Below, one piece after another: positions 5,123 through 24,000 of a stretch of 24,000 bases of DNA (within the stretch, counting starts at the first letter, position 1; each line of letters starts with the position of its first letter). The notes below the pieces were generated by a model, which was not told the origin of the DNA, did no database searches, and saw only the letters and a list, made by a program, of their open reading frames with translations. This stretch comes from Promethearchaeia archaeon. GTDB lineage: Archaea > Asgardarchaeota > Lokiarchaeia > Sigyniarchaeales > SOKP01. The stretch spans positions 1 to 24,000 of the forward strand of contig JAWOFX010000172.1 in NCBI GenBank assembly GCA_046497275.1, given 5' to 3'. Both the position numbers and the translations under genes were made by a program.

Positions 5123-7000
5123 GTGAAAAGCGATAACTCCATCTTCTCAAATACTTTCTATAAAAATATTATAGACTCACTTGATATACCAATATTAATT
5201 ATAAAAAAAATAGATAATCAATTTCTTATTATTGATTGTAATCTTGCTAGTGTAGAGATTTTTGAAAGAAATAAAGGAGATTTATTTGATCTAGATATAA
5301 TAGAACTTTACAAGAATGAAAAAATTATAGAAGATTTGAAAGAATGTTTCAATAAAAAAACACAATTCTCAAAATTAAGAAAATTACAGTATTTAGAATC
5401 TAAAGAACCCAAAATACAGATTATAAAATATCATTATATTGAATCAAATATGGCATTTTTATACTTTCAAAGTATAGAAAAATGTTTTGGGGATACTAAA
5501 AATAACAAAATGCAAGAAAAATATGTTCTGGAGAATCTTATCGAGCATATAGTCTTTCAAGATAACAATCACACAATTTTATGGGCAAATGAAGCCGCAA
5601 TAAAATCTATAAATGCAGATTTAAGTGATTTGGTAGGTAAGAAATGTTACGAAGTATGGGCAAATAGAAGTACTCCTTGTGAGAACTGTCCTGTTGAAGC
5701 TGCTATTAAATCGGGGAAATCAGAAATTGGCCAACAATCAACTTATGATGGAAGAGGATGGTATATTAAAGGTTTTCCAGTTAAAGATACTTACAATAAT
5801 ATAATTGGAGCTATAGAATATACAATTGATATAACAGAATGGTCTAATTTAGAAAAAGAATTATTAAATAAAACTAGATTAATGCATAAAATAACAGAAA
5901 CAAGCCCTGTTGCAATTACTCTTTTAAATCTGGAGGGAAATATTATTTTTTCTAACAAACGAGCAAAAGAGATTTTTGGGTTAAAGAGAGAAGAGATGTT
6001 AAGTAGAAAGTATAATTCTAAAGAATGGCAAATACATGATTTAGATGGTAATCCTTTCCCCGACGAAGAATTACCATTTCGTAAAGTAATAGAAAGGAAA
6101 AAGCCATATTATGGTATTAAACATCGGATAACAAATTCCGATGGAGATATGAAATATTTATCTATAAATGCGGCACCTTTATTTGGTGAAAATAAAGAGC
6201 TGATCAATATAGTCACTTCTATTGAAGATATTACTGAACAAAAAAAAACAGAGCAAAAACTTATAGAATCAGAAAAAAAATATCGTGAAGCATATAGCCA
6301 AATCAACCTATATAAAGATATTTTTGCCCATGATATAAATAATATTTTACAAAATATTTCCACATCAATCGAACTCTTAGATATATATTCAAACGAGAGT
6401 TATGTTTCAGATAATTTTAATGAAATTATTAAGATTATTGAAAAACAAGTTATGAGAGGGGCAAATCTTAATTCTAATATAAATGTGTTATCTCAATTAG
6501 AAAATAAAATAGAATCTTTAAAGCCAATCAACGCTCTTACCTATTTGAGAAAATCAGTTAATAAAATTAAAGATCATATGAAATACGACAAAAATATTGA
6601 AATAGAGATCAAAAGACTCCCCGTGGGAAATGATGTTTATATCAGAGCAAATAGTTTGATTGAATATCTATTTGATAATATTCTATTAAACTCAATATTA
6701 CACAATAAAAATGATCTTATTACTATTGAAATTAATATTGCACGAAAAGAAATAGAAGATTCAGATTATTTAACGATTGAATTCATAGATAATGGTGTTG
6801 GATTCATAGATGATTTTAAAAAGGAAATTTTTAGAAATAGTAAGGAATATAAAAGATTGGAGGGAATAGGCTTAGGATTTATGTTGATAAAGAAAATCAT
6901 AGAAACCTATGTAGGAAAAATTGAGATTGAAAATCGGAACGCTGATGATCCAAGCCAAGGAAGTAGATTTCTTCTTGTTTTGCCTGCAGCAAATATTTGA
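5123..7000 (+). CDS. multi-PAS sensor histidine kinase (cytoplasmic)
   Basis: 625 aa with a GTG start preceded by AGGGG at about 8 nt. It has at least two PAS-like modules; one carries CYEVWANRSTPCENCPVEAAIKSG (C-x11-C-x2-C). It also has H-box YKDIFAHDINNILQNI, N-box LNSILHN, G1 DNGVGF and G2 GIGLGFMLIKKIIE. The H-box region is paralogous to the 114-1607 kinase. Confidence 0.85.
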   Translation: MKSDNSIFSNTFYKNIIDSLDIPILIIKKIDNQFLIIDCNLASVEIFERNKGDLFDLDIIELYKNEKIIEDLKECFNKKTQFSKLRKLQYLESKEPKIQIIKYHYIESNMAFLYFQSIEKCFGDTKNNKMQEKYVLENLIEHIVFQDNNHTILWANEAAIKSINADLSDLVGKKCYEVWANRSTPCENCPVEAAIKSGKSEIGQQSTYDGRGWYIKGFPVKDTYNNIIGAIEYTIDITEWSNLEKELLNKTRLMHKITETSPVAITLLNLEGNIIFSNKRAKEIFGLKREEMLSRKYNSKEWQIHDLDGNPFPDEELPFRKVIERKKPYYGIKHRITNSDGDMKYLSINAAPLFGENKELINIVTSIEDITEQKKTEQKLIESEKKYREAYSQINLYKDIFAHDINNILQNISTSIELLDIYSNESYVSDNFNEIIKIIEKQVMRGANLNSNINVLSQLENKIESLKPINALTYLRKSVNKIKDHMKYDKNIEIEIKRLPVGNDVYIRANSLIEYLFDNILLNSILHNKNDLITIEINIARKEIEDSDYLTIEFIDNGVGFIDDFKKEIFRNSKEYKRLEGIGLGFMLIKKIIETYVGKIEIENRNADDPSQGSRFLLVLPAANI

Positions 7001-7272
7001 GATTATTTTTTATTCTTTCCGATTTATTGTACAATCACTATAAAGTAAAAAAAATTAAATAGTTCATAAATTATATTTTAATAAAATCTTAGATTTTTAA
7101 TGATATTTTTATAAATTTCTTTCCTAGTTGGGAGGAGGATCATTTTAACTACAAAGAACTGCCATAAAAAAGTCCTAAAGAAAAAAACATATCATTATAA
7201 TTATAGTAAATCCTTGGCGGAAACTTTTATAAGATTATATTTGGAGGGATAAAAATTACTTCAGTATTCATT

Positions 7273-7626
7273 GTGGAAGATGATAGATCAATACAGACCT
7301 TATATAAAAAGTTTCTTGATTTATACGGTTTTAATGTAGCCGGAACCGCCAGTAATGGTGAAGAAGCTGTCCAAAAATTTAGATCTTTTATTAAAAAACC
7401 AGATATAATACTTATGGATCATAGAATGCCAGTTAAAGACGGAATTGAAGCTACAAAAGAAATTCTCTCCATAGATAGTAGTATCAATATAATTTTTGCT
7501 AGTGCAGATAAAACAATAATGGATGAAGCACAAAAGTTGGGTATAATTAGTTTTCTTGAAAAACCATTTAGTTTAGAAATCCTGATTGATTGTATTAAAA
7601 ATCTGGGAACCCAAAAATCAGTTTAG
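7273..7626 (+). CDS. single-domain response regulator (CheY-like receiver)
   Basis: It has the acidic pair VEDD, the phospho-acceptor context IILMDHRMPVKDG, and the conserved Lys in LEKPF. There is no output domain. The first canonical start (GTG 7273) cuts off strand beta-1, which is encoded in frame upstream (KITSVFI), so the true start may be ATA 7249 or ATT 7255 after GGAGGG 7243-7248. Confidence 0.85.
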   Translation: MEDDRSIQTLYKKFLDLYGFNVAGTASNGEEAVQKFRSFIKKPDIILMDHRMPVKDGIEATKEILSIDSSINIIFASADKTIMDEAQKLGIISFLEKPFSLEILIDCIKNLGTQKSV

Positions 7627-7679
7627 TCCTCTCCAGCCGGAGAATCAAAAAATTGTTCTAGATTATAAGGATTGATTAT

Positions 7680-7787
7680 TTAGATAAATTCAAAGGAAGT
7701 TTAATTGGGACTGCCCTCGGAGATACTCTTGGGCGTCCATTCGAAGGAAAGCTTAGGAACAGCATACGTGGAAATTTTGAATCCTAA
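7680..7787 (+). pseudogene. N-terminal fragment of an ADP-ribosylglycohydrolase-family gene (remnant)
   Basis: The in-frame translation LDKFKGSLIGTALGDTLGRPFEGKLRNSIRGNFES* matches the characteristic N-terminus of ADP-ribosylglycohydrolases (D-x-F-x-G-x-L-x-G-x-A-x-GD-x-LG-x-P-x-E). The frame opens only at 7662, has no ATG/GTG/TTG start, and stops after about 35 codons. It is locally GC-richer than its surroundings. Confidence 0.45.
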
Positions 7788-7849
7788 ATATTGCCGAAAG
7801 ACTACATGGTAAATTTCAAAAATGAGTTTTTATTTATGTTTCTCATAAT

Positions 7850-8476
7850 TTAGAAAGAGTTACTCGAAATATTCACAGCGTTGAAATATTTTTTTGCCAA
7901 TCTGGCATAATAATAGAAAAAATATGCCATAATAAGAAAGAAGATTGAGGTAAAAAAAATGGAAAAAATTAGGAAAGATGAATTTAAGAATAGCGGGAAA
8001 AACAAAATTAAGGCTAAAATGCCTGCTAAATTTATTAATGAATATAATAAAGTAAGTTTAGCATAATTATGAAAACCTTTTTGAGGATTTTCTTTTTTTA
8101 AGACTTTTAGACATCTATAACAGATTAAAGAGCCGTCCTGATTCTTTTTTTGGTCTCTTTTAAACTTTCTTAGAATTGTAAAAATATTTCTAATATTTCG
8201 TTTACATATAGAACATTTAAATTGATTGCTGATTAATGACATATCATCCAAAATTTTTGTAATTTCAGACTTAGGAAAAAAACATTTATCGTTCTTATAA
8301 TTTTGGCAAGTTATACAAGTCAAGTTTTTAAAAGTTAGAAAATTTAATGCAAAATCATAAGTAGAATATTTCATGATATCATATGCTGAGTGATTTTTAC
8401 AAAGTACAAAACCATTCTTATTTATTTTAAATTTTGGGATAATATAATCCCGATTATTCAAATCTCTCTTGCCCAT
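7850..8476 (-). CDS. Cys-rich (zinc-ribbon-like) protein with C-terminal transmembrane anchor
   Basis: 208 aa. Paired cysteines (CKNH, CITCQNYKNDKC, CSICKRN, CYRC) suggest two zinc ribbons. The C-terminal ~70 aa are two hydrophobic helices (LTLLYSLINLAGILALILFFPLFL, IFSIFFTSIFFLIMAYFFYYY). No family was recognised. Confidence 0.55.
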   Translation of the reverse strand: MGKRDLNNRDYIIPKFKINKNGFVLCKNHSAYDIMKYSTYDFALNFLTFKNLTCITCQNYKNDKCFFPKSEITKILDDMSLISNQFKCSICKRNIRNIFTILRKFKRDQKKNQDGSLICYRCLKVLKKENPQKGFHNYAKLTLLYSLINLAGILALILFFPLFLNSSFLIFSIFFTSIFFLIMAYFFYYYARLAKKYFNAVNISSNSF

Positions 8477-8677: not shown

Positions 8678-8751
8678 GGGAGGGTAGTCTAGCTTGGTAT
8701 GATTCCTGGTTTGGGACCAGGAGGCCGCGGGTTCGAATCCCGTCTCTCCCA
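8678..8751 (+). tRNA. tRNA-Pro (anticodon UGG)
   Basis: I folded the cloverleaf by hand.
- Acceptor: GGGAGGG / CTCTCCC, 7 bp with one G-U.
- D arm: GTCT / TGAT, with a GG-containing loop.
- Anticodon arm: stem CCTGG / CCAGG, loop TTTGGGA, so anticodon TGG with G37.
- Variable loop: AGGCC.
- T arm: GCGGG-TTCGAAT-CCCGT.
- Discriminator: A, with no encoded CCA.
G1-C72 is archaeal/eukaryal-style for tRNA-Pro. Confidence 0.93.
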
Positions 8752-15153: not shown

Positions 15154-15882
15154 TCATTGATTTTTATTTTGAAATATGAGGAGATCTCTTGATCCAATTA
15201 AAATGAATTTTTTATTTAGACATATTCTCCTCCATTTATCAGTATGAAAAGATGTATTTTCATAGGGAACGGAAATCCTATATTTTAATTTCAAAAAATT
15301 TGACAAAATTTTTTCACATTCAAATCCTAAATCTATTAACTCTCTATTTTGTTCCCTTTTGTTAGAAATTATTAATGCTAAAAAACCATCTCTAGTTAAG
15401 CTGGTAAGAAATTTCTTCGCAGTCAATTCTATAGCATTTAAGAATTCTCTTAAATTTAGATTAGATAGATCTGTTCTTTCATTAGTATATTTACTTTTAT
15501 TCATATTAAAATAAGGAGGATCTAAGACAATTAATTTAAATATATTTGATTTAAAAGGGTTTTTATCTTCAATTACATTAAATTTCTTTATCTTTTTATT
15601 AACTGGATTAATATCTAATCCAATAACTCTTCTTCTCATTAGGTTTCCTGCATCCACCCCAGTACCACTACCACAAAAAACATCAAGAATATAATCATTT
15701 AAATCAGTAAAAAAATAGTATAGATTGATATAGATTTGACCTGGTATCCTTCCAGGATAAGGAAACCCAAATCTGTTGTCACATTTCTTAAAATGCCAAT
15801 TCGTTGTCGTTCTAATTATTTTTGGGTTTATTAATCTTAAATCATGAGGTAGATCCGTATTTTCTTGAACTAATTTTCTCAT
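15154..15882 (-). CDS. DNA methyltransferase, DPPY type (N6-adenine or N4-cytosine), motif I before motif IV
   Basis: 242 aa. It has the SAM-binding motif I LDVFCGSGTG (aa 66-75) preceded by FPYPGRIPGQI, and the catalytic motif IV VLDPPYFN (aa 119-126). It is divergent from a small nuclease gene. Confidence 0.8.
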   Translation of the reverse strand: MRKLVQENTDLPHDLRLINPKIIRTTTNWHFKKCDNRFGFPYPGRIPGQIYINLYYFFTDLNDYILDVFCGSGTGVDAGNLMRRRVIGLDINPVNKKIKKFNVIEDKNPFKSNIFKLIVLDPPYFNMNKSKYTNERTDLSNLNLREFLNAIELTAKKFLTSLTRDGFLALIISNKREQNRELIDLGFECEKILSNFLKLKYRISVPYENTSFHTDKWRRICLNKKFILIGSRDLLIFQNKNQ

Positions 15883-16025: not shown

Positions 16026-16520
16026 ATGAAAGAAAAAGATTATTATCCGATAATTAAGGTTTGGTTAAGAAATTTATTAGAAAGCTATTTTCCTAATAAG
16101 AATATCCATGTTTTTGACAGCTCGAATATTTATTTAGATAAACTTATTCAGGAAAATAATTGGACGAACTATCGTTCTGATTATGCAACTTATCAAATTA
16201 AAATTGATATTTTGGGAGTAATAATTGATGATGGAAAAATGGATTTTGTTTTCATTGAAGTGAAGAATACTAAAATTAGCTTAAAGGATGTTTCTCAATT
16301 ATTAGGTTATAGTAGAGTTGCGAATCCAATCTATTCAATAATAACCTCACCAAAATGGATTAGTAAACCAATAAGAATTTTATTTGATACTTATAGAAGA
16401 TTTGATATATTAAAATATGATCATAATAGAACCATAAAAGTATGTAAATGGGATAAAAACAAGAATGATATTGATTATAATTTAATATATCCAGGTAAAC
16501 CATTGTTTAATTCTTCTTAA
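16026..16520 (+). CDS. small PD-(D/E)xK nuclease (NucS/DUF91-like core), candidate restriction endonuclease
   Basis: 164 aa. The core is IKIDILGVIIDDGKMDFVFIEVKNTKISLKDVSQLLGY. This gives D61 ... E78-x-K80 followed by a QxxxY helix, the pattern of NucS-type PD-(D/E)xK domains. It is divergently paired with the DPPY methyltransferase. Confidence 0.6.
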   Translation: MKEKDYYPIIKVWLRNLLESYFPNKNIHVFDSSNIYLDKLIQENNWTNYRSDYATYQIKIDILGVIIDDGKMDFVFIEVKNTKISLKDVSQLLGYSRVANPIYSIITSPKWISKPIRILFDTYRRFDILKYDHNRTIKVCKWDKNKNDIDYNLIYPGKPLFNSS

Positions 16521-16525
16521 AATTT

Positions 16526-17488
16526 CTATTCTTCTTCATTCATGTAATTATTCATAAATTTCTGTTGATTAAATTCCTTACAACCTAAATCTCTACAAAT
16601 TTGCCAAAATGTATCATAATGGTTTCCTCTAATTTCGTCTGGTAAATCTTTATCATTTTCATCTGGATGGGGGGGATTTTTTCTTATTTTCCTTTCCATT
16701 TTTTTTATAGGATCACAGATACTACTTGAAATACCTTTCTCCTTATTTTCTTTAGCAAATTCTTGCGATTTATTATTCTTATGAGTAATATAAAATCCAA
16801 TGCTTTCAAAATCATGATTATATACCTTTATTTGATGTTCTCTTTTCGTCCACTTTTGATCTGGAGAATTTCTTAGATTAGGATGGCCCCAAGTCATAGT
16901 TTGAACGGGGATATTTAAATGATTCTGTAATAAATCACAAATTTGTATCGGTAAGTGCCAATTTTGATTTAAAACATCGATATAAATTCTATGACCTCCA
17001 TTTATATAAGCATTACTTTTCCTTACCTTTCCATTAACATCCACAAATCCTCTCATAAATTCTTTCTTAAAACTAATTGGAGATATAAATATTTCCTCAG
17101 GGACAGAAAATTCAGTGTAATCTTTTTTATTATTCAATAGCATCTGAATATCTCTGATAAAAAGAGTTTTCCTAGGAATTTCAAAAACTATTGAAACATA
17201 ATCATCACCTGGTTTTTTAAATGGGGTATTTGTTGTTAATTCGCTTAAACGATTAATTATAACATCAACACTCACTAACAAGGCATTTATATCACCCTCT
17301 CTGTCCCATGGAGATTCACCAATACGTAAGTTAGAATATGGAATCTCTATCGAAATAGTATAATGACCTCTATGCTCTAATATCGTTCCTCTGGCGACTA
17401 ACATTCCTAATAAATATGAGACATCTTCATCTAAATAATCAATAATTTTAATCATCAACCCTTTTTTGGAATAATAAAATATATTCAT
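16526..17488 (-). CDS. double-motif LAGLIDADG-like protein with both catalytic acidic positions substituted
   Basis: 320 aa. Motif 1 is YLLGMLVARGT (aa 25-35) and motif 2 is FMRGFVDVNGKV (aa 144-155), about 119 aa apart as in monomeric LAGLIDADG enzymes. Position 8 of each motif, normally Asp/Glu, is Arg and Asn. An alternative start ATG at 17455 (MIKIIDYLDEDV) overlaps the methyltransferase stop by 8 nt (ATGATTAA), which suggests translational coupling. Confidence 0.45.
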   Translation of the reverse strand: MNIFYYSKKGLMIKIIDYLDEDVSYLLGMLVARGTILEHRGHYTISIEIPYSNLRIGESPWDREGDINALLVSVDVIINRLSELTTNTPFKKPGDDYVSIVFEIPRKTLFIRDIQMLLNNKKDYTEFSVPEEIFISPISFKKEFMRGFVDVNGKVRKSNAYINGGHRIYIDVLNQNWHLPIQICDLLQNHLNIPVQTMTWGHPNLRNSPDQKWTKREHQIKVYNHDFESIGFYITHKNNKSQEFAKENKEKGISSSICDPIKKMERKIRKNPPHPDENDKDLPDEIRGNHYDTFWQICRDLGCKEFNQQKFMNNYMNEEE

Positions 17489-18302
17489 GTATCCTGTTAA
17501 CTCTGAAGACTGTTGGATATCCCAAAGGTCTCAAGTTATTATATTCCATTTGTCTATTCCATATTATAATATCATCAAGATAAAATCCAATTTCTCTCAT
17601 AAAATCTACAGTATCAATATGAAATGAATAGAATTTATCTTTTTTACGTATATCCATTAGGATTATTATGCAAAATTTATCCTTTTTGAGAAGAGAATAT
17701 ATTTGTTTAAAGATTTTTTTTAATTTTAACAAAAATTCATTATAATCTTCTATATTACCTAAATCTTGTTCATTATCGGAATAGGGTCGAATTTCTTTAT
17801 TATCAGCAGAACGTTTCATTCTTAGAATATCCCAATATGGAGGAGAAGTTAAGCATAAATCAATAGAATTTTCTTCTACAAATTCAGATATTTTATTTGC
17901 GTTTTTGTTATATATCTTAATATTTTTTTTCACTTCATTCGTCCCGAAGTTACTTGTAACCTTTTTTTGTTTAATTCTTTCCTTGAAAAGATCGATGTAA
18001 TTTTTATTAATTTCAAAACCTATTGCTTTTCTTTTATTATTTTTAGCTGATATTAGGGTACTTCCAGAACCAAAAAAAGGATCTAAAATAACATCTCCAG
18101 GTTTAGTAAAAATGTTTATAATTCGATCACATAATTTTAATGGAAACATTGCAGGGTGTCCTAGCTTTCTTTCCTCGGGTGTTTTAACTATATCCCAAAC
18201 ACTAATTGAATATTTTAACCATTTTTTACCATTTAAATTATTCAATCTTTTCTCATTTGATTCTATTTCATCTTCAGGAATTTCATTTTTTAGTTCAGTC
18301 AT
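17448..18302 (-). CDS. DNA methyltransferase, SPPY type (likely N4-cytosine or N6-adenine), circularly permuted motif order
   Basis: 284 aa. The block WDIVKTPEERKLGHPAMFPLKLCDRIINIFTKPGDVILDPFFGSGSTLISAKNNKRKAIGFEINKNY (aa 36-102) is the signature that normally forms the C-terminus of beta-class N4/N6 methyltransferases. Here it is followed by IDLCLTSPPYWD (aa 147-158) and IIIWNR, which normally form the N-terminal half. Confidence 0.85.
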   Translation of the reverse strand: MTELKNEIPEDEIESNEKRLNNLNGKKWLKYSISVWDIVKTPEERKLGHPAMFPLKLCDRIINIFTKPGDVILDPFFGSGSTLISAKNNKRKAIGFEINKNYIDLFKERIKQKKVTSNFGTNEVKKNIKIYNKNANKISEFVEENSIDLCLTSPPYWDILRMKRSADNKEIRPYSDNEQDLGNIEDYNEFLLKLKKIFKQIYSLLKKDKFCIIILMDIRKKDKFYSFHIDTVDFMREIGFYLDDIIIWNRQMEYNNLRPLGYPTVFRVNRIHEYILLFQKRVDD

Positions 18303-18979: not shown

Positions 18980-20929
18980 ATGAATAGAAATAAAATGAAT
19001 AACTATTATGAAAAGGATAAGTTTAAAAACCCAAATACAGAAATTAGGAATGTCTTGTTGATTGATAGCTTTCTTCCAGAAGAAATTGAATTTATAAGAA
19101 ATAAATCAATTAATATTGATAATTTAAAAAGTAAATGGTCATGGTTATATGAAAATCCCTCTTATGCGGAAGATTTTTTTATTTTTGTTGTTTTACCTTA
19201 TTTTATTGCCAAACCTCAATTAAATAATTGGGAACTAAAAAAACTATGTCTAAGTCCGTTTAAGTATGCTTTAAAATCGTATAGAGATAAGTTTGATTCA
19301 AATTTTTATACTTTTGGTCAATTAAAAAGAAAGTATGGGAACTTTAACTTTTCAGATCTTTGTAGGCTAATAGGAGAAGATAAAGCAAAACAAAAAGTGA
19401 ACCATGCTAAAAAAAGAATAAAAGATATTTTAGGAAGTGATAGTCCCAAAATAAAAAAAATTAGAGTTTATCTAAGAGAATTGGATTGGGATAAAGATAT
19501 TGATTGGACAATATTTAAATTTATAAATAAGAACAGAACTGATATGATTATTCTGGAGCCAAAAAATACATGTAGCGAAGAGAATCCATTATACATGCAT
19601 AAGGAATGGTTAACTCGTATATATAGGGATGAGAATTTACATCTTAATGATCCTCAAATTGCCCAGATTTGCGGTGTAAATCATTCAGCTATTTATAAAT
19701 GGAGGAAGAGATTTGGAATCCAAACTAAGCCAGACGTTCAAATTAAGGAATTAAAAAGAAAAAATAGTGCTGGTTATGTTGAAAAATTTATGCCAATGGA
19801 GTACAATCATCCTAATATTAATAAAAAATATGGAGAAAGACAAAAAAGAAGAGAACATGTTGCCATTATGGAAAATTTTTTATCGAATATTTCTCAATCT
19901 GAGAGTTATATAAGATTCGGTTTATATCCAGATGAGATAAAGGAAAAGTACCTGCTTTCTGATCGCTATCTTAAGAAGGAATGCGTCGTACATCATATAA
20001 ATTTTATAAAATCTGATAATCGAATAAATAATTTATGGCCTTATGAAAATAATCAAAAGCATAATGAACTTATAGATAATCTGAATAAATGTTTTTCATT
20101 TCTAATAAAAGTAGGACAAATCTTTTTTGAAAATGGAAAATATTATCTTAATGAAAGATGTGATTATAGGAAAATCCCAAAAGAGAAATTAAAGGAATTA
20201 TTAAAATCTCATTATAAGCCAAATCCGTATAAAAATCTTAAGGATGTCAAAAACGCATTAATTGATAAAAACATAATAAATTGGGATGAAATTCTCGCTG
20301 ATCTTCAAGATTGGCGGATTGAGTATAAAGTCAATCAATATAAAAGTTTTATTATTGAACTTAATCCTTACAATTATCCTTCTGAAAATAATCCCTTATA
20401 TATGAAAAAAGAATGGTTAGAAACCGTTTACAACGACGAAAGATTCAATTTATCTGATTCTAGATTAGCGAAAATCTGCGGTGTCCCAAAAACTCGGATT
20501 ACAGATTGGAGAGGGAACTTTGGTATTGAAGGAGGATGGAAACGATGGCTCAGAATTATAAATGAGGGTTTCGTGTGGATTCTTGTGCCCGTGAATTATA
20601 ATCCTAATGCTTACAAAAGAGACGGAAGAATGTTAGAACATAGATATCTAATTGAGAGATATTTATCTAGATGTTGTAGTGAAGAAATAAAAAGTAAATA
20701 TTTAGAGGATGGAAAATATTTAAAAAATGGTATTATTGTCCACCATATTAATTTTGACACACTAGATAATCGATTAAAAAATTTATGGATTTTTAAATCG
20801 AGAAGTGATCATTTAAGTTGTCATCATTCACTATATAAATTGATAGATAAACTTTTAAAAAAAAATTTCTTAATTTTCAGAAAAGGGAGATATCTTATTA
20901 ATTATCGTAAAAAAAAATACCATAAATGA
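18980..20929 (+). CDS. tandem-duplicated HTH + HNH endonuclease (two complete modules in one chain)
   Basis: 649 aa.
- Module 1 (aa ~200-390): NPLYMHKEWLTRIYRDENLHLNDPQIAQICGVNHSAIYKWRKRFGI ... REHVAIMENFL ... CVVHHINFIKSDNRINNLWPYENNQKHNEL.
- Module 2 (aa ~469-641): NPLYMKKEWLETVYNDERFNLSDSRLAKICGVPKTRITDWRGNFGI ... LEHRYLIERYL ... IIVHHINFDTLDNRLKNLWIFKSRSDHLSCHH.
Each module is an HTH followed by an HH-N-DNR-NL-H (HNH) core. The N-terminal ~190 aa were not recognised. Confidence 0.75.
   Translation: MNRNKMNNYYEKDKFKNPNTEIRNVLLIDSFLPEEIEFIRNKSINIDNLKSKWSWLYENPSYAEDFFIFVVLPYFIAKPQLNNWELKKLCLSPFKYALKSYRDKFDSNFYTFGQLKRKYGNFNFSDLCRLIGEDKAKQKVNHAKKRIKDILGSDSPKIKKIRVYLRELDWDKDIDWTIFKFINKNRTDMIILEPKNTCSEENPLYMHKEWLTRIYRDENLHLNDPQIAQICGVNHSAIYKWRKRFGIQTKPDVQIKELKRKNSAGYVEKFMPMEYNHPNINKKYGERQKRREHVAIMENFLSNISQSESYIRFGLYPDEIKEKYLLSDRYLKKECVVHHINFIKSDNRINNLWPYENNQKHNELIDNLNKCFSFLIKVGQIFFENGKYYLNERCDYRKIPKEKLKELLKSHYKPNPYKNLKDVKNALIDKNIINWDEILADLQDWRIEYKVNQYKSFIIELNPYNYPSENNPLYMKKEWLETVYNDERFNLSDSRLAKICGVPKTRITDWRGNFGIEGGWKRWLRIINEGFVWILVPVNYNPNAYKRDGRMLEHRYLIERYLSRCCSEEIKSKYLEDGKYLKNGIIVHHINFDTLDNRLKNLWIFKSRSDHLSCHHSLYKLIDKLLKKNFLIFRKGRYLINYRKKKYHK
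19577..20149 (+). repeat. intragenic repeat unit 1 (HTH-HNH module 1)
   Basis: Protein-level duplication with 20384-20902. The HNH core 1 is encoded at about 19991-20074. Confidence 0.7.
20384..20902 (+). repeat. intragenic repeat unit 2 (HTH-HNH module 2)
   Basis: Protein-level duplication with 19577-20149. The HNH core 2 is encoded at about 20741-20824. The linker between HTH and HNH is about 19 aa shorter than in module 1. Confidence 0.7.
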
Positions 20930-21062: not shown

Positions 21063-21845
21063 TTATTTATTCATAAAAGATATTAATTCAGTGCCTATCT
21101 CTCTCAATTCTTCAATCCATTCATTTAATTGATCCGAATTTACATCTCTTTTACCATGAACTAAGTAATTTCTTATCTGATAAAATTTTAGGATTTTCTC
21201 TGCGAATTCGGAGGATATCTTTTTATTTTCCTCCAGTAAAGGGATTATTTTCAAGATAGTATAAGGTTTATTTATTTTTGGTATTAAACTCTCCGTTAAA
21301 GTAAAATTTCTTAGATTAGTTCGAATTTCATTCCAAATGTCTAAAAATAATTTTATTTGTTCTTCTTTTTCATTCATTTCTATTTCTCCTAATATTTTTT
21401 CATCTTTAATTCCAAATAATTCTTTTATAATATTCTTCGCTAATTCTAAATAGATAGGAACTACCTCCTTTTTTGGTATTATACCTATAGGTTCATGATA
21501 TAGACTATTTCTTAAATTATGGTAAAACTCAATCGCATCAAGATCGCTTTCTGGGATATTTTTAGGAGAATATCTCAACAATACGTCTAATAAAACAGGG
21601 AAAGATCTTTTAGCATTTTTGAACTCTTTTCTATTAATTCCTAAGGACCTTCTATTAATCATCAGATATGTTTTTAACGCAATTTCAATAGCATTATCAA
21701 TACTGATTAAAGCTATTCTTAAATCAAAATCTTCTCCTTTTTTAAAATGATCACTTGCATGTCTTAAAAGTTCCGAAAATCCTTCGATCCAAGTTTCAGA
21801 AGTGATTAAAATCACATTTTTTTGATTTATTTTAATATTAATCAT
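21063..21845 (-). CDS. single-chain tandem HEPN-like protein (two RNxxxH motifs), predicted RNase/toxin
   Basis: 260 aa, predicted all-helical by composition. Motif 1 is FYHNLRNSLYHE (R112-N-S-L-Y-H117, nt 21495-21512). Motif 2 is FYQIRNYLVHG (R225-N-Y-L-V-H230, nt 21156-21173). Each closes a segment of about 115-130 aa that begins with a long helix (e.g. DLRIALISIDNAIEIALKTYL), as in HEPN domains. Confidence 0.55.
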   Translation of the reverse strand: MINIKINQKNVILITSETWIEGFSELLRHASDHFKKGEDFDLRIALISIDNAIEIALKTYLMINRRSLGINRKEFKNAKRSFPVLLDVLLRYSPKNIPESDLDAIEFYHNLRNSLYHEPIGIIPKKEVVPIYLELAKNIIKELFGIKDEKILGEIEMNEKEEQIKLFLDIWNEIRTNLRNFTLTESLIPKINKPYTILKIIPLLEENKKISSEFAEKILKFYQIRNYLVHGKRDVNSDQLNEWIEELREIGTELISFMNK

Positions 21846-21982
21846 TAAATGCTAATTAATTATAAGTTCTATCTTCATCAAAATAAGAAAAGAGGATTTT
21901 TTGTAAATTGATCTAAAGAGCTAATCCTATATAAGGAAATTTTTAATAAAATAGTCTAAACTATGTCTTTTTCTTGAAAAAT

Positions 21983-22747
21983 TCAAATTAAAATATCCTC
22001 TCCAGCCCAATAAAATTTAAATTCTCTAGGTGTTAGTATAGCAATTTTTACATTACCTCCACATTGAGGAAATCTCGCTTGAAATTTTTCAAAACCAATG
22101 ACAGTATTAATAATATATTCAGTGAATTCTACTCCATCTTTTAAGGAAAAAAATTGAAATGATATATCTGACTTGGGTAAACTTTTAGATGGATCAGAAA
22201 TCTTCAATAATTTTGAAATGATCCAAGAACCCTCTCCTGCCCAGCTGAAGCCACAATCCTCATTTTTTAAAATTTTTCTAATTTGCTTCTTTTGAATGAT
22301 CAATTTTTCAGTTTTATCCAATAGAAAAAGAATCTGATACACTTCAGGTATATATCTTTTCTCTCTTAATGAAAATCCCGTTAAGAAGAACCCAAGTCCC
22401 TTTAATCGGGATTTATCATATTTTTTGAAATAATCTATAATTAGATCAGCATAATTTTCAAGCATATTCATATTTTCTGATTCTTTTTCTAAAATCTCTC
22501 TTAAGTTAAAAATATGATTGCTTAAAGGTCGACCACCGGGATTTGCTATTCCAAATTGAGAAACGGCTATCTTTAGATTTGAATTTTCTGTTGACAAATT
22601 AAAAATTTTTTGAGCATTTCTAAAAAAATTTACTGGAATTATTTCCTTTTTTTTATCATTCTTTTTAATTATTTTTGACAGTGTTGTTTGAGTATCAGAA
22701 CCTAATATAAATCCCTCTGGAATACCTAATATTGTAATTATTGTCAT
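21983..22747 (-). CDS. proteasome beta / HslV-like N-terminal-nucleophile (Thr1) hydrolase homolog
   Basis: 254 aa. The N-terminus MTIITILGIPEGFILGSDTQTT parallels proteasome beta/HslV starts (TTIVgv..dGvvlaaDtraT). Thr follows Met directly, so there is no propeptide. Asp falls at position 17 counted from Thr. The QKIF lysine (K47) is a candidate Lys33 equivalent after an insertion, and the WAGEGSW turn at aa 169-175 lies near the usual GSG(S) loop. The rest is divergent. Confidence 0.5.
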   Translation of the reverse strand: MTIITILGIPEGFILGSDTQTTLSKIIKKNDKKKEIIPVNFFRNAQKIFNLSTENSNLKIAVSQFGIANPGGRPLSNHIFNLREILEKESENMNMLENYADLIIDYFKKYDKSRLKGLGFFLTGFSLREKRYIPEVYQILFLLDKTEKLIIQKKQIRKILKNEDCGFSWAGEGSWIISKLLKISDPSKSLPKSDISFQFFSLKDGVEFTEYIINTVIGFEKFQARFPQCGGNVKIAILTPREFKFYWAGEDILI

Positions 22748-22947: not shown

Positions 22948-24000
22948 ATGCTTGATATTTCGAAATATACTAATAGTCCACTTAAATATATCCCAGAGGA
23001 TTATTGTCCTAAGTCAGATATGCATTTTTTTGAAATAAAAAAGGGATTTGATAAAGGAAAGAAATTATTTTATCGTAACTCAAAAATATTGGGAAATAAT
23101 CCTGATAACTGTATCGTATTTGTGCATGGTAATCCTGAATGTTCTTATACATATCGGGATATTATCAAACATATCATTAAAAATACTAAAAAAGCTTGTC
23201 AGATAATATCAATGGATCATATTGGATTTGGACTCTCTGATCAAGCTTCACATGAAATGGTATGCATGGATCACGCAGAAAATCTATTACAACTTATTAG
23301 AAAGCTTGATCTTCAAAATATTACTTTAATAGTGCACGATTGGGGAGGTCCAATTGGAATAGGGGCGTTTCTCCAAGATCCAAAACGGGTATCAAATTTA
23401 GTTATTCTTAATACTACAGTTTTTCCTATTCCTAAAATCGGGATGACGTTTCAAAATTATCCAATCTCTTGGTTGGGTTGGTGTTATACTCCTTATATAA
23501 TTCCAGATAAGTTTTGGGGAGATTTTGCAGCGTATGCAATCTTTACAAATCCACGTAAACCGATATCACTTCTCTCAAACATGATCAAAAATATCATCTT
23601 AATGGAGTTTGGTATATTTCAAAAACCAAATAGAATCGCTCAAAGTGTGTTTAAACAACAATTCCAATCAAAACTTAATGTGAAAAGTTCAAAGAGATTA
23701 GTTATGCAAACAAAAAGATGGGGATATGGAAATATATATAAAGATAAAGTATTGGGAAAAAGATCAACAAAACAATTTTATGAATTCATACAAAATAATA
23801 TAAAATCCTCATGGGGTTCGAATGAATCGACTATCGGAGTTAAAGCAATATTAGGGAGATGGGATCCTCTAGCTCAAAATGAGGTTATTAAACAATGGAT
23901 AGGTCATTTGCCTCAATTAAAAGGAAATGTTCGAATTTTCAAAGATATAGGGCATTTTATAGAAGAGAATAAAAGCGAAGCTATTGCTGAAGAAATTTTG
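22948..24000 (+). CDS. alpha/beta-hydrolase, haloalkane-dehalogenase/epoxide-hydrolase-like (Asp nucleophile); 3' end beyond window
   Basis: ATG at 22948, open for 351 codons to the window edge. It has the oxyanion motif VFVHGNPECSYTYR, the nucleophile elbow LIVHDWGGPIG, and catalytic His in DIGHFIEE. It was not in the ORF track because it has no stop in the window. It is the intact paralog of the 14769-15116 remnant. Confidence 0.85.
   Translation, partial: MLDISKYTNSPLKYIPEDYCPKSDMHFFEIKKGFDKGKKLFYRNSKILGNNPDNCIVFVHGNPECSYTYRDIIKHIIKNTKKACQIISMDHIGFGLSDQASHEMVCMDHAENLLQLIRKLDLQNITLIVHDWGGPIGIGAFLQDPKRVSNLVILNTTVFPIPKIGMTFQNYPISWLGWCYTPYIIPDKFWGDFAAYAIFTNPRKPISLLSNMIKNIILMEFGIFQKPNRIAQSVFKQQFQSKLNVKSSKRLVMQTKRWGYGNIYKDKVLGKRSTKQFYEFIQNNIKSSWGSNESTIGVKAILGRWDPLAQNEVIKQWIGHLPQLKGNVRIFKDIGHFIEENKSEAIAEEIL

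Follow-up and report, generated by a model that had tools for sequence, protein, structure and literature searches.

The 24,000-nucleotide window analyzed here, positions 1 to 24,000 of contig JAWOFX010000172.1 from a Promethearchaeia archaeon, carries near its end two co-oriented genes, which we refer to as gene A and gene B. Gene A encodes a new member of the known proteasome-like superfamily that is apparently restricted to Asgard archaea, while gene B encodes a member of an uncharacterized, widespread family within the HEPN superfamily that has an asymmetric tandem architecture. The two genes are probably independent of each other and adjacent by chance of gene order, A encoding an Asgard N-terminal nucleophile (Ntn) hydrolase and B a tandem-HEPN single-gene effector. 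A first-pass annotation of the same DNA had proposed that they form a protease–ribonuclease (RNase) conflict system. Relatives of A and B are never neighbors elsewhere, and we therefore regard them as separate genes and not as such a system.

Both open reading frames (ORFs), their coordinates and the gap between them are exactly as first annotated. The encoded proteins are identical to two NCBI proteins of a Promethearchaeati archaeon (Asgard), ACQERB_05695 and ACQERB_05690, both annotated as hypothetical.

21983..22747, minus strand: gene A, ORF of 254 residues, start MTIITILGIPEGFILGSDTQTT; proteasome-beta-like (Ntn), without propeptide; ACQERB_05695
21063..21845, minus strand: gene B, ORF of 260 residues; two HEPN-type domains, standalone; ACQERB_05690
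21846..21982, no strand: spacer between A and B, 137 bp, AT-rich

Genomic linkage of the A and B families

We examined the linkage of the two families from both sides. The B set comprised 76 distinct proteins in 86 loci. For 67 of them the flanking sequence reaches 900 bp or more on at least one side, and the flanks amount to about 350 kb in total. No relative of A was found near B at any of the 76 distinct B loci, either by tblastn or with a hidden Markov model (HMM) of the A family, which is sensitive enough to detect remote relatives among 1.8 billion proteins. The four closest homologs of B likewise have no A relative nearby. On the other side, B relatives are absent from the vicinity of A at all 7 distinct A loci besides that of the source organism, and the genes adjoining A differ each time: downstream of the A homologs lies a TPR protein, a DUF4238 protein, an unknown 537-residue protein, or nothing. 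Both families are present in two metagenome assemblies (SDBS01 and SDBT01), where they lie on separate contigs. Otherwise, A and B are adjacent only in a second assembly of the source organism.

An antitoxin-like or controlling partner, as the first-pass annotation had envisaged, does not recur next to B either. All-against-all clustering of 318 B neighbors yielded no recurrent partner beyond near-identical contigs. The expectation that the pair is not a known system was borne out in PADLOC-DB 2.0, where A has no match and B has two marginal ones (DzbB, E 1.2e-3; Cas7b, E 9e-3).

The failure of conserved linkage largely refutes a functional two-gene conflict system in which the peptidase activates, restrains or complements the double-HEPN RNase, and we consider such a system very improbable. 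Its appeal lies in the locus itself: A and B are co-oriented and only 137 bp apart, their arrangement is repeated in the second assembly of the organism, restriction-modification (R-M)-like genes and an HNH gene lie beside them, and the catalytic motifs of both proteins are intact. Set against this are the count of zero linked loci from either side, profile searches included, the variation from locus to locus in the genes downstream of A homologs, and the marginal PADLOC scores of B (E ~1e-3 to 1e-2) next to the absence of any for A. The distributions of the families also diverge: members of the B family occur in bacteria and on a Leptospira plasmid, while the close relatives of A are apparently found only in Asgard archaea. 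The sampling weighs somewhat against independence of the two genes: an upstream flank of 900 bp or more is available for 52 of the 76 distinct B proteins, on contigs that are short and metagenomic, and the independent A loci are few (7 besides that of the source organism), a scan of the genome collection for A having returned two loci only, hence the small sample of A contexts.

Gene A and its proteasome-like family

An AlphaFold2 model of A was built on an alignment of 27 homologs, which also underlies the conservation counts given below. The model has a predicted local distance difference test (pLDDT) score of 87.6 and a predicted template modeling (pTM) score of 0.86. Foldseek returned 200 matches in the PDB at E <= 1e-3. 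The top 50 listed were 20S proteasome subunits, almost all of the beta type, together with Anbu (5nyw); the best match had an E-value of 1.2e-7 and a probability of 1.00, and target TM-scores to 20S beta subunits were 0.6-0.72. These model-based matches support the proteasome-beta or Ntn fold, an alpha-beta-beta-alpha sandwich, that had been predicted for A. Sequence searches gave a fainter signal. A has no match in Pfam or NCBIfam, not reaching the gathering threshold of PF00227, and its profile has no match among PDB sequences. When A was aligned by hhalign with a genuine Asgard PF00227 beta subunit encoded near one of its homologs (locus L013), the comparison gave P = 6.5e-4 and paired PEGiILGSDTQ...QKIF of A with KDGVVLGSDRR...QKVF of the beta subunit. 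Because they are in register with this genuine subunit, we take Asp18 and Lys47 of A as the equivalents of Asp17 and Lys33.

22742..22744, minus strand: Thr2 codon, predicted N-terminal nucleophile (Thr1 after Met removal); M1-T2 in 26/27 homologs
22694..22696, minus strand: Asp18 codon, equivalent of proteasome Asp17; 27/27; aligns with the beta-subunit GSD (hhalign)
22607..22609, minus strand: Lys47 codon (QKIF), equivalent of Lys33, shifted by a variable insertion; 26/27
22226..22237, minus strand: GEGS turn, residues 171-174, at a strand-helix junction; G171 and G173 in 27/27
22055..22063, minus strand: Cys229-Gly-Gly; C229, G230 and G231 invariant in the 27 homologs

The threonine directly after Met, the aspartate 17 residues later, the QKIF lysine and the GEGS turn had all been singled out in the first-pass annotation, and they prove to be conserved in 26 or 27 of the 27 homologs. 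Gly66 is also kept in all 27. In the model, strand 166-171 and helix 174-181 meet at the GEGS site, which, by analogy with proteasome topology, would be the site of the proteasome GSGS turn (Ser129). Cys229-Gly-Gly would correspondingly occupy the position of the proteasome Ser169-Gly-Gly turn. Given the specificity of methionine aminopeptidase, this enzyme would remove Met1 and expose the threonine as an N-terminal nucleophile. Catalysis by the exposed threonine would then involve Asp18 and Lys47, in the manner of HslV, Anbu, BPH and connectase.

The 28 close homologs of A share 39-55% identity, are almost all 245-256 residues long and have no Pfam domain on record. Where a source is named, it is Promethearchaeati, Promethearchaeota Loki_b31 or an uncultured archaeon, and the close subfamily is apparently confined to Asgard archaea. 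Far more relatives were found when the A profile was searched against 1.84 billion representative proteins: 753 clusters at E <= 1e-3, 140 at E <= 1e-10 and 4 at E <= 1e-30. These remote relatives are 215-300 residues long and begin with MS (105/149) or MT (35/149), followed by EGIV.A.DSR. They include Bacteroidales proteins, and two of them match PF00227 weakly (E 0.01-0.04). A search of phage genomes with one remote bacterial relative (P0061) gave no match, and a cluster look-up gave 'hypothetical protein' only. Judged by these sequence features, the A subfamily sits within a large bacterial and archaeal superfamily of putative propeptide-less Ser1/Thr1 proteasome homologs.

The neighbors of A homologs likewise point to Asgard archaea; among them are Roadblock/LC7, a Ras/gelsolin protein, TFIIB, a RING protein and a canonical proteasome subunit. 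No neighborhood is repeated across loci. At L013 (3394-4014 and 1062-3026), the A-family gene lies about 2 kb from the gene of the canonical PF00227 subunit and from that of a 654-residue RING-finger protein. Other A homologs adjoin Roadblock/LC7 (L007-L009) or a DUF4238 protein together with an AAA_15/AAA_21-Schlafen protein (L096).

Fuchs, Alva and Lupas described 22 new families of proteasome homologs in 2021, with no informative genomic context or AAA+ partner (PMC8665760), and A has much in common with these proteins. Shared features are the proteasome-beta fold, a Thr or Ser right after Met, the lack of a propeptide, the Asp17 and Lys33 equivalents, the insertions between S3 and S4 and between H3 and H4, and the lack of conserved genomic context and of an AAA+ partner. 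In the model of A, the S3/S4 insertion spans residues ~24-42 and is of variable length across homologs, the H3/H4 insertion spans residues ~182-201, and the C-terminal H5 helix is missing. With both insertions and no propeptide, the modeled architecture of A most resembles that of the PMI group of Fuchs et al. The likeness is one of architecture. The close A family is apparently Asgard-only, and the rows for PMI list Euryarchaeota and not 'other archaea'. A further differs from the published homologs in scoring below the Pfam Proteasome (PF00227) threshold and, as far as can be judged by position, in having a Cys at the Ser169 position and no Asp166 equivalent.

These insertions bear on whether A assembles into a ring. 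According to Fuchs et al. (PMC8665760), an S3/S4 insertion is the signature of connectase, and H3/H4 insertions could block the assembly of double rings. Both are present in the model of A, which also lacks the H5 helix, and no AAA+ unfoldase of the HslU type that accompanies HslV adjoins A in the window or at its 7 other loci. A might therefore not be self-compartmentalizing, being instead a monomeric or low-order enzyme such as a connectase-like, sequence-specific peptide ligase or transpeptidase. The best structural matches of A are nevertheless ring-forming beta subunits and Anbu, and A has no match to the connectase family (DUF2121) in Pfam; we judge a non-compartmentalizing enzyme to be unlikely.

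Gene B and its two unequal HEPN-type domains

The product of gene B carries two RNxxxH motifs, RNSLYH and RNYLVH, 113 residues apart and at the residues given for them in the first-pass annotation. Two such motifs occur in shuffles of the B sequence with P = 1.7e-4 (100,000 shuffles). Across 97 family members, the two motifs and the domains that contain them behave very differently.

21495..21512, minus strand: HEPN motif 1, RNSLYH, R112-H117; in 97/97 members; end of helix 99-117
21156..21173, minus strand: HEPN motif 2, RNYLVH, R225-H230; R and H both kept in 79/97 members
21408..21797, minus strand: N-terminal domain, residues 17-146; divergent HEPN-like four-helix domain, mean pairwise identity 51.5%
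21066..21377, minus strand: C-terminal domain, residues 157-260; fast-evolving HepT-like HEPN domain, mean pairwise identity 20.2%

The model of B (pLDDT 89.4, pTM 0.84) is all-helical, and each motif ends the penultimate helix of its half. Although whole-chain Foldseek E-values are weak, the sole high-probability matches are HEPN domains. The best is AF_0298 (2hsb; probability 1.00, target TM-score 0.75), and the other confident matches are the HepT toxins 5yep, 6m6w and 7bxo as well as 2q00 and 8jbb, with Csm6 and PaREP-type HEPN among them. These matches, with the motifs in register, agree with the earlier description of B as a protein with two HEPN motifs. Sequence comparisons point the same way at low scores: members of the family match six HEPN-clan families of Pfam weakly and nothing else consistently, and the full B profile has marginal HepT matches among PDB sequences (E ~0.2). 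B has no match above the curated thresholds of Pfam, NCBIfam, PADLOC and PHROGs, and no meaningful match among the viral structures of BFVD.

A first search returned 5 homologs of B, a profile search 28, and a metagenome scan at least 327 relatives, while tblastn located a further copy carried by Leptospira interrogans plasmids. The family to which B belongs is thus widespread and horizontally scattered; its members are standalone proteins of ~245 residues that contain two HEPN-type domains, and it has no curated model.

The two halves are conserved to very different degrees. R43, D50, E54, H109, R112, N113, Y116 and H117, all in the N-terminal half, are 100% conserved in the 97 members, and this half is the more conserved one in 99.8% of member pairs. 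The C-terminal half comes close to recognized families, with E 1.5e-4 to the Pfam HepT-like model (residues 191-246; 21.9 bits against a cut-off of 23.5) and E 2.9e-5 to the NCBIfam HepT_toxin model (23.9 bits against a cut-off of 60). Aligned with each other by hhalign, residues 81-123 and 196-236 match with the motifs in register (P = 1.3e-4, probability 54%). The N-terminal half is assigned to HEPN because of its motif, the position of that motif in its helix, and this internal alignment.

Several observations weigh against two HEPN-type domains in the chain. The N-terminal half retrieves nothing relevant from PDB sequence profiles; alone, it gives one weak Apea match in 10 sequences against Pfam, which leaves the domain unrecognized there; and the Foldseek matches to HEPN are those of the whole chain, with the half not specified.

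Motif 2 is lost in 18 of the 97 members (19%), in which the N-terminal domain stays perfect. From these conservation patterns we infer that the N-terminal domain is the catalytic RNase module, to which the fast-evolving C-terminal domain would be a partner. The first-pass annotation had pictured B as a pseudo-dimeric, constitutively assembled RNase. Two HEPN motifs in one chain are indeed present, but with mean identities this far apart the halves are not equivalent, and the picture of a constitutive site formed by equivalent halves therefore needs changing.

B could act either as an intramolecular pseudo-dimer or as an N:N' homodimer. The pTM of 0.84 corresponds to a fixed arrangement of the two domains in the model. 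In the intramolecular arrangement, the C-terminal domain would pack on the N-terminal one and take the place that the second protomer has in a HEPN dimer, completing or gating the cleft and perhaps serving as the variable part that senses a trigger. Alternatively, B could homodimerize through its conserved N-terminal HEPN domains, which would form a composite two-motif site, with the C-terminal domain as a regulatory or sensor appendage. This arrangement would suit the invariance of motif 1, the members that have lost motif 2 and kept a perfect N-terminal domain, and the faster evolution of the C-terminal half (20% against 52% identity), which is expected of a specificity or sensor module. Characterized HEPN RNases, moreover, generally need two motifs (bioRxiv 10.1101/760058; PMC12165695). 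The model, by contrast, is that of a confidently packed two-domain monomer, and motif 2 is kept in 81% of members despite rapid divergence around it, which argues for selection on motif 2. We consider the homodimer possible but somewhat unlikely.

B can be compared with several known HEPN systems. HepT is among the closest: the best sequence matches of the C-terminal domain are HepT-like, HepT toxins are among the structural matches, and the RNxxxH motif is equivalently placed; the scores stay under the curated cut-offs in both Pfam and NCBIfam. Whereas HepT forms a homodimer, B carries at its N-terminus a fused second domain of HEPN type that looks unrelated. B also lacks a neighboring MntA nucleotidyltransferase, its upstream neighbor being A and its downstream neighbor an HNH gene. 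A HepT/MntA-type toxin–antitoxin pair was rejected for B, as no neighbor recurs across the 86 loci.

Like Cas13, Cas13an and CnuE, B contains two HEPN motifs in one polypeptide, and Cas13 pairs its domains intramolecularly. The earlier statement that double-HEPN proteins of a single chain are some four times the size of B is outdated. Cas13an is compact, at about one third of the normal Cas13 size, and a fusion of two AbiD/F-like HEPN genes has been proposed as its origin (PMC12165695), while CnuE of type III-A CoCoNuT systems has two HEPN domains (PMC11090510). Since all three have two HEPN domains in one chain, the architecture of B has precedent. B is nonetheless much smaller (~245-260 residues) and has no REC-like or other domains. 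Unlike Cas13 and CnuE, it has no array of clustered regularly interspaced short palindromic repeats (CRISPR) in the window, no McrBC partners and no detectable sequence relationship to them. A Cas13-like role was rejected for B, since neither the window nor 103 of the 104 loci scanned contain an array and no Rfam RNA lies close to the two genes.

Among the HEPN families of Anantharaman et al. (PMC3710099: HEPN-T AF_0298/2hsb, DUF4145, ApeA-like, RiboL-PSP-HEPN), AF_0298 is the best fold match of B, and the B family weakly matches the DUF4145, Apea and RiboL-PSP models. No member reaches the curated threshold of these families. The tandem architecture, with its invariant FDxRIAxISIDNAxE...IExxHxxRNxLYH N-terminal domain, did not appear among the architectures of PMC3710099 in text searches of that paper, and a bare standalone double-HEPN protein of ~245 residues with no curated model was not found in the literature searched.

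Neighborhoods of B and the surrounding locus

Among 150 proteins flanking B, no family dominates. Neighbors of the conflict type include TIR_2, SLFN_AlbA_2, Shedu SduA_C, AAA_21 and phage integrases, with matches to the Mokosh, MADS and PD-T4-6 models, and ordinary neighbors such as ETF and MFS transporters are also many. Nucleotidyltransferases are not among the top neighbor families. The neighborhoods of B are thus variable and often defense-flavored. B beside R-M-like genes fits a known pattern, linkage to R-M systems being one of the commonest HEPN contexts and multi-pronged defense having been proposed (Anantharaman et al. 2013, PMC3710099).

Two B loci are described here individually. 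L017 (2884-9955 of SDBS01000634.1) is the one locus of the 104 scanned that has CRISPR arrays. Its B-family gene (6004-6732) lies between oppositely oriented arrays with the repeat GTTTCAATCTATTTCTAGTTAGTTACAAAC, as do two unknown genes (6748-7776 and 7793-8317). The flanks encode Cas6, a PHP-domain protein and two Card1-type CARF proteins. A leader-like sequence of ~180 nucleotides recurs within the array and breaks it up into several blocks. The Cas6 and CARF genes suggest a type III-like CRISPR locus. L104 (4211-6569) is on Leptospira interrogans plasmid pGui2 (NC_025197.1). Its B copy (WP_000414754.1, 232 residues, annotated hypothetical) lies between an HNH endonuclease gene and the gene of a 229-residue protein, and the B gene of the window likewise adjoins an HNH gene. 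The 229-residue protein has an RNFIVH motif of its own and weakly resembles the C-terminal domain of B.

Judged by context only, B would be a single-gene, RNA-cleaving effector of defense or abortive-infection type that resides in variable islands, its activity being predicted. Its patchy distribution over archaea, bacteria and a plasmid, its fast-evolving C-terminal domain, and its repeated proximity to TIR, Schlafen, Shedu, Mokosh, MADS, CRISPR and R-M genes are all typical of conflict genes. B might instead serve outside defense, as a housekeeping or mobile-element protein for RNA processing or RNA binding, or as a selfish toxin-like gene, with its position in islands reflecting horizontal mobility. 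No conserved immunity or antitoxin partner accompanies it, many of its neighbors are ordinary, it is very rare on viral contigs (IMG/VR has 2 B loci and no A locus), and it has no PHROG match and no convincing PADLOC match. Weighed against the conflict-type features, a non-defense role seems to us quite unlikely.

The window otherwise has the content of a low-GC archaeal chromosome, with dapA, dapB, argG, histidine kinases and a tRNA gene. The island of two R-M-like modules and an HNH nuclease noted in the first-pass annotation was confirmed, as two N6_N4 methyltransferases and an HNH_3 protein.

8678-8751, plus strand: tRNA gene (Rfam RF00005, 61.7 bits); not adjoining the R-M/HNH/HEPN stretch
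15154-15882, minus strand: R-M-like module 1, N6_N4 methyltransferase; divergent to the 164-residue protein
16026-16520, plus strand: R-M-like module 1, 164-residue protein; weak match to NucS-like endonucleases
16526-17488, minus strand: R-M-like module 2, 320-residue protein of no assigned family; candidate restriction enzyme
17448-18302, minus strand: R-M-like module 2, N6_N4 methyltransferase; 41-nucleotide overlap with the gene of the 320-residue protein
18980-20929, plus strand: HNH_3 protein of 649 residues; downstream neighbor of B
22950-24000, plus strand, running off the window end: alpha/beta hydrolase with HGNP...HDWGG motifs; Abhydrolase_1 in the matching NCBI contig; divergent from A

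The HNH_3 protein is an internal tandem duplication that matches phage HNH homing-endonuclease PHROGs. Its duplicated helix-turn-helix segments read ENPLYMHKEWL...KWRKRFGI and NNPLYMKKEWL...DWRGNFGI, and its duplicated HNH segments VVHHINF...NLW and IVHHINF...NLW. The alpha/beta hydrolase beyond A is an ordinary gene at the apparent edge of the variable region. The spacer between A and B contains no repeat array and has no Rfam match, and it is long enough that B may have its own promoter. The start of B may also lie ~10 codons downstream of the annotated one (21816-21845 of the window), because homologs begin ~10-17 residues in and model residues 7-14 have a pLDDT below 50. With Val11 as the start, the gap to A would be ~167 bp.

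Given the great diversity already known in both superfamilies, neither A nor B should come as a surprise to specialists. The negative linkage result removes the tempting reading of a new defense system, and adjacency within an island is insufficient evidence for one. A bolder view, which we offer tentatively and consider rather doubtful, is that B is the smallest known single-chain two-HEPN RNase, an autonomous one-gene immune or suicide effector in which a rapidly evolving C-terminal HEPN domain senses the invader and, within the same molecule, completes and gates the conserved catalytic N-terminal one, and that A is an Asgard-specific Thr1 homolog with a substrate of its own. If this were true, B would be a free-living example of the stage of 'fusion of two HEPN genes' proposed for the origin of Cas13. 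The strongly asymmetric tandem-HEPN architecture of the B family may in any case inform the origin of intramolecular HEPN pairs such as that of Cas13, and the A family adds an apparently Asgard-restricted branch to the proteasome homologs, which is of some relevance to how proteolysis evolved in the archaea related to eukaryotes.

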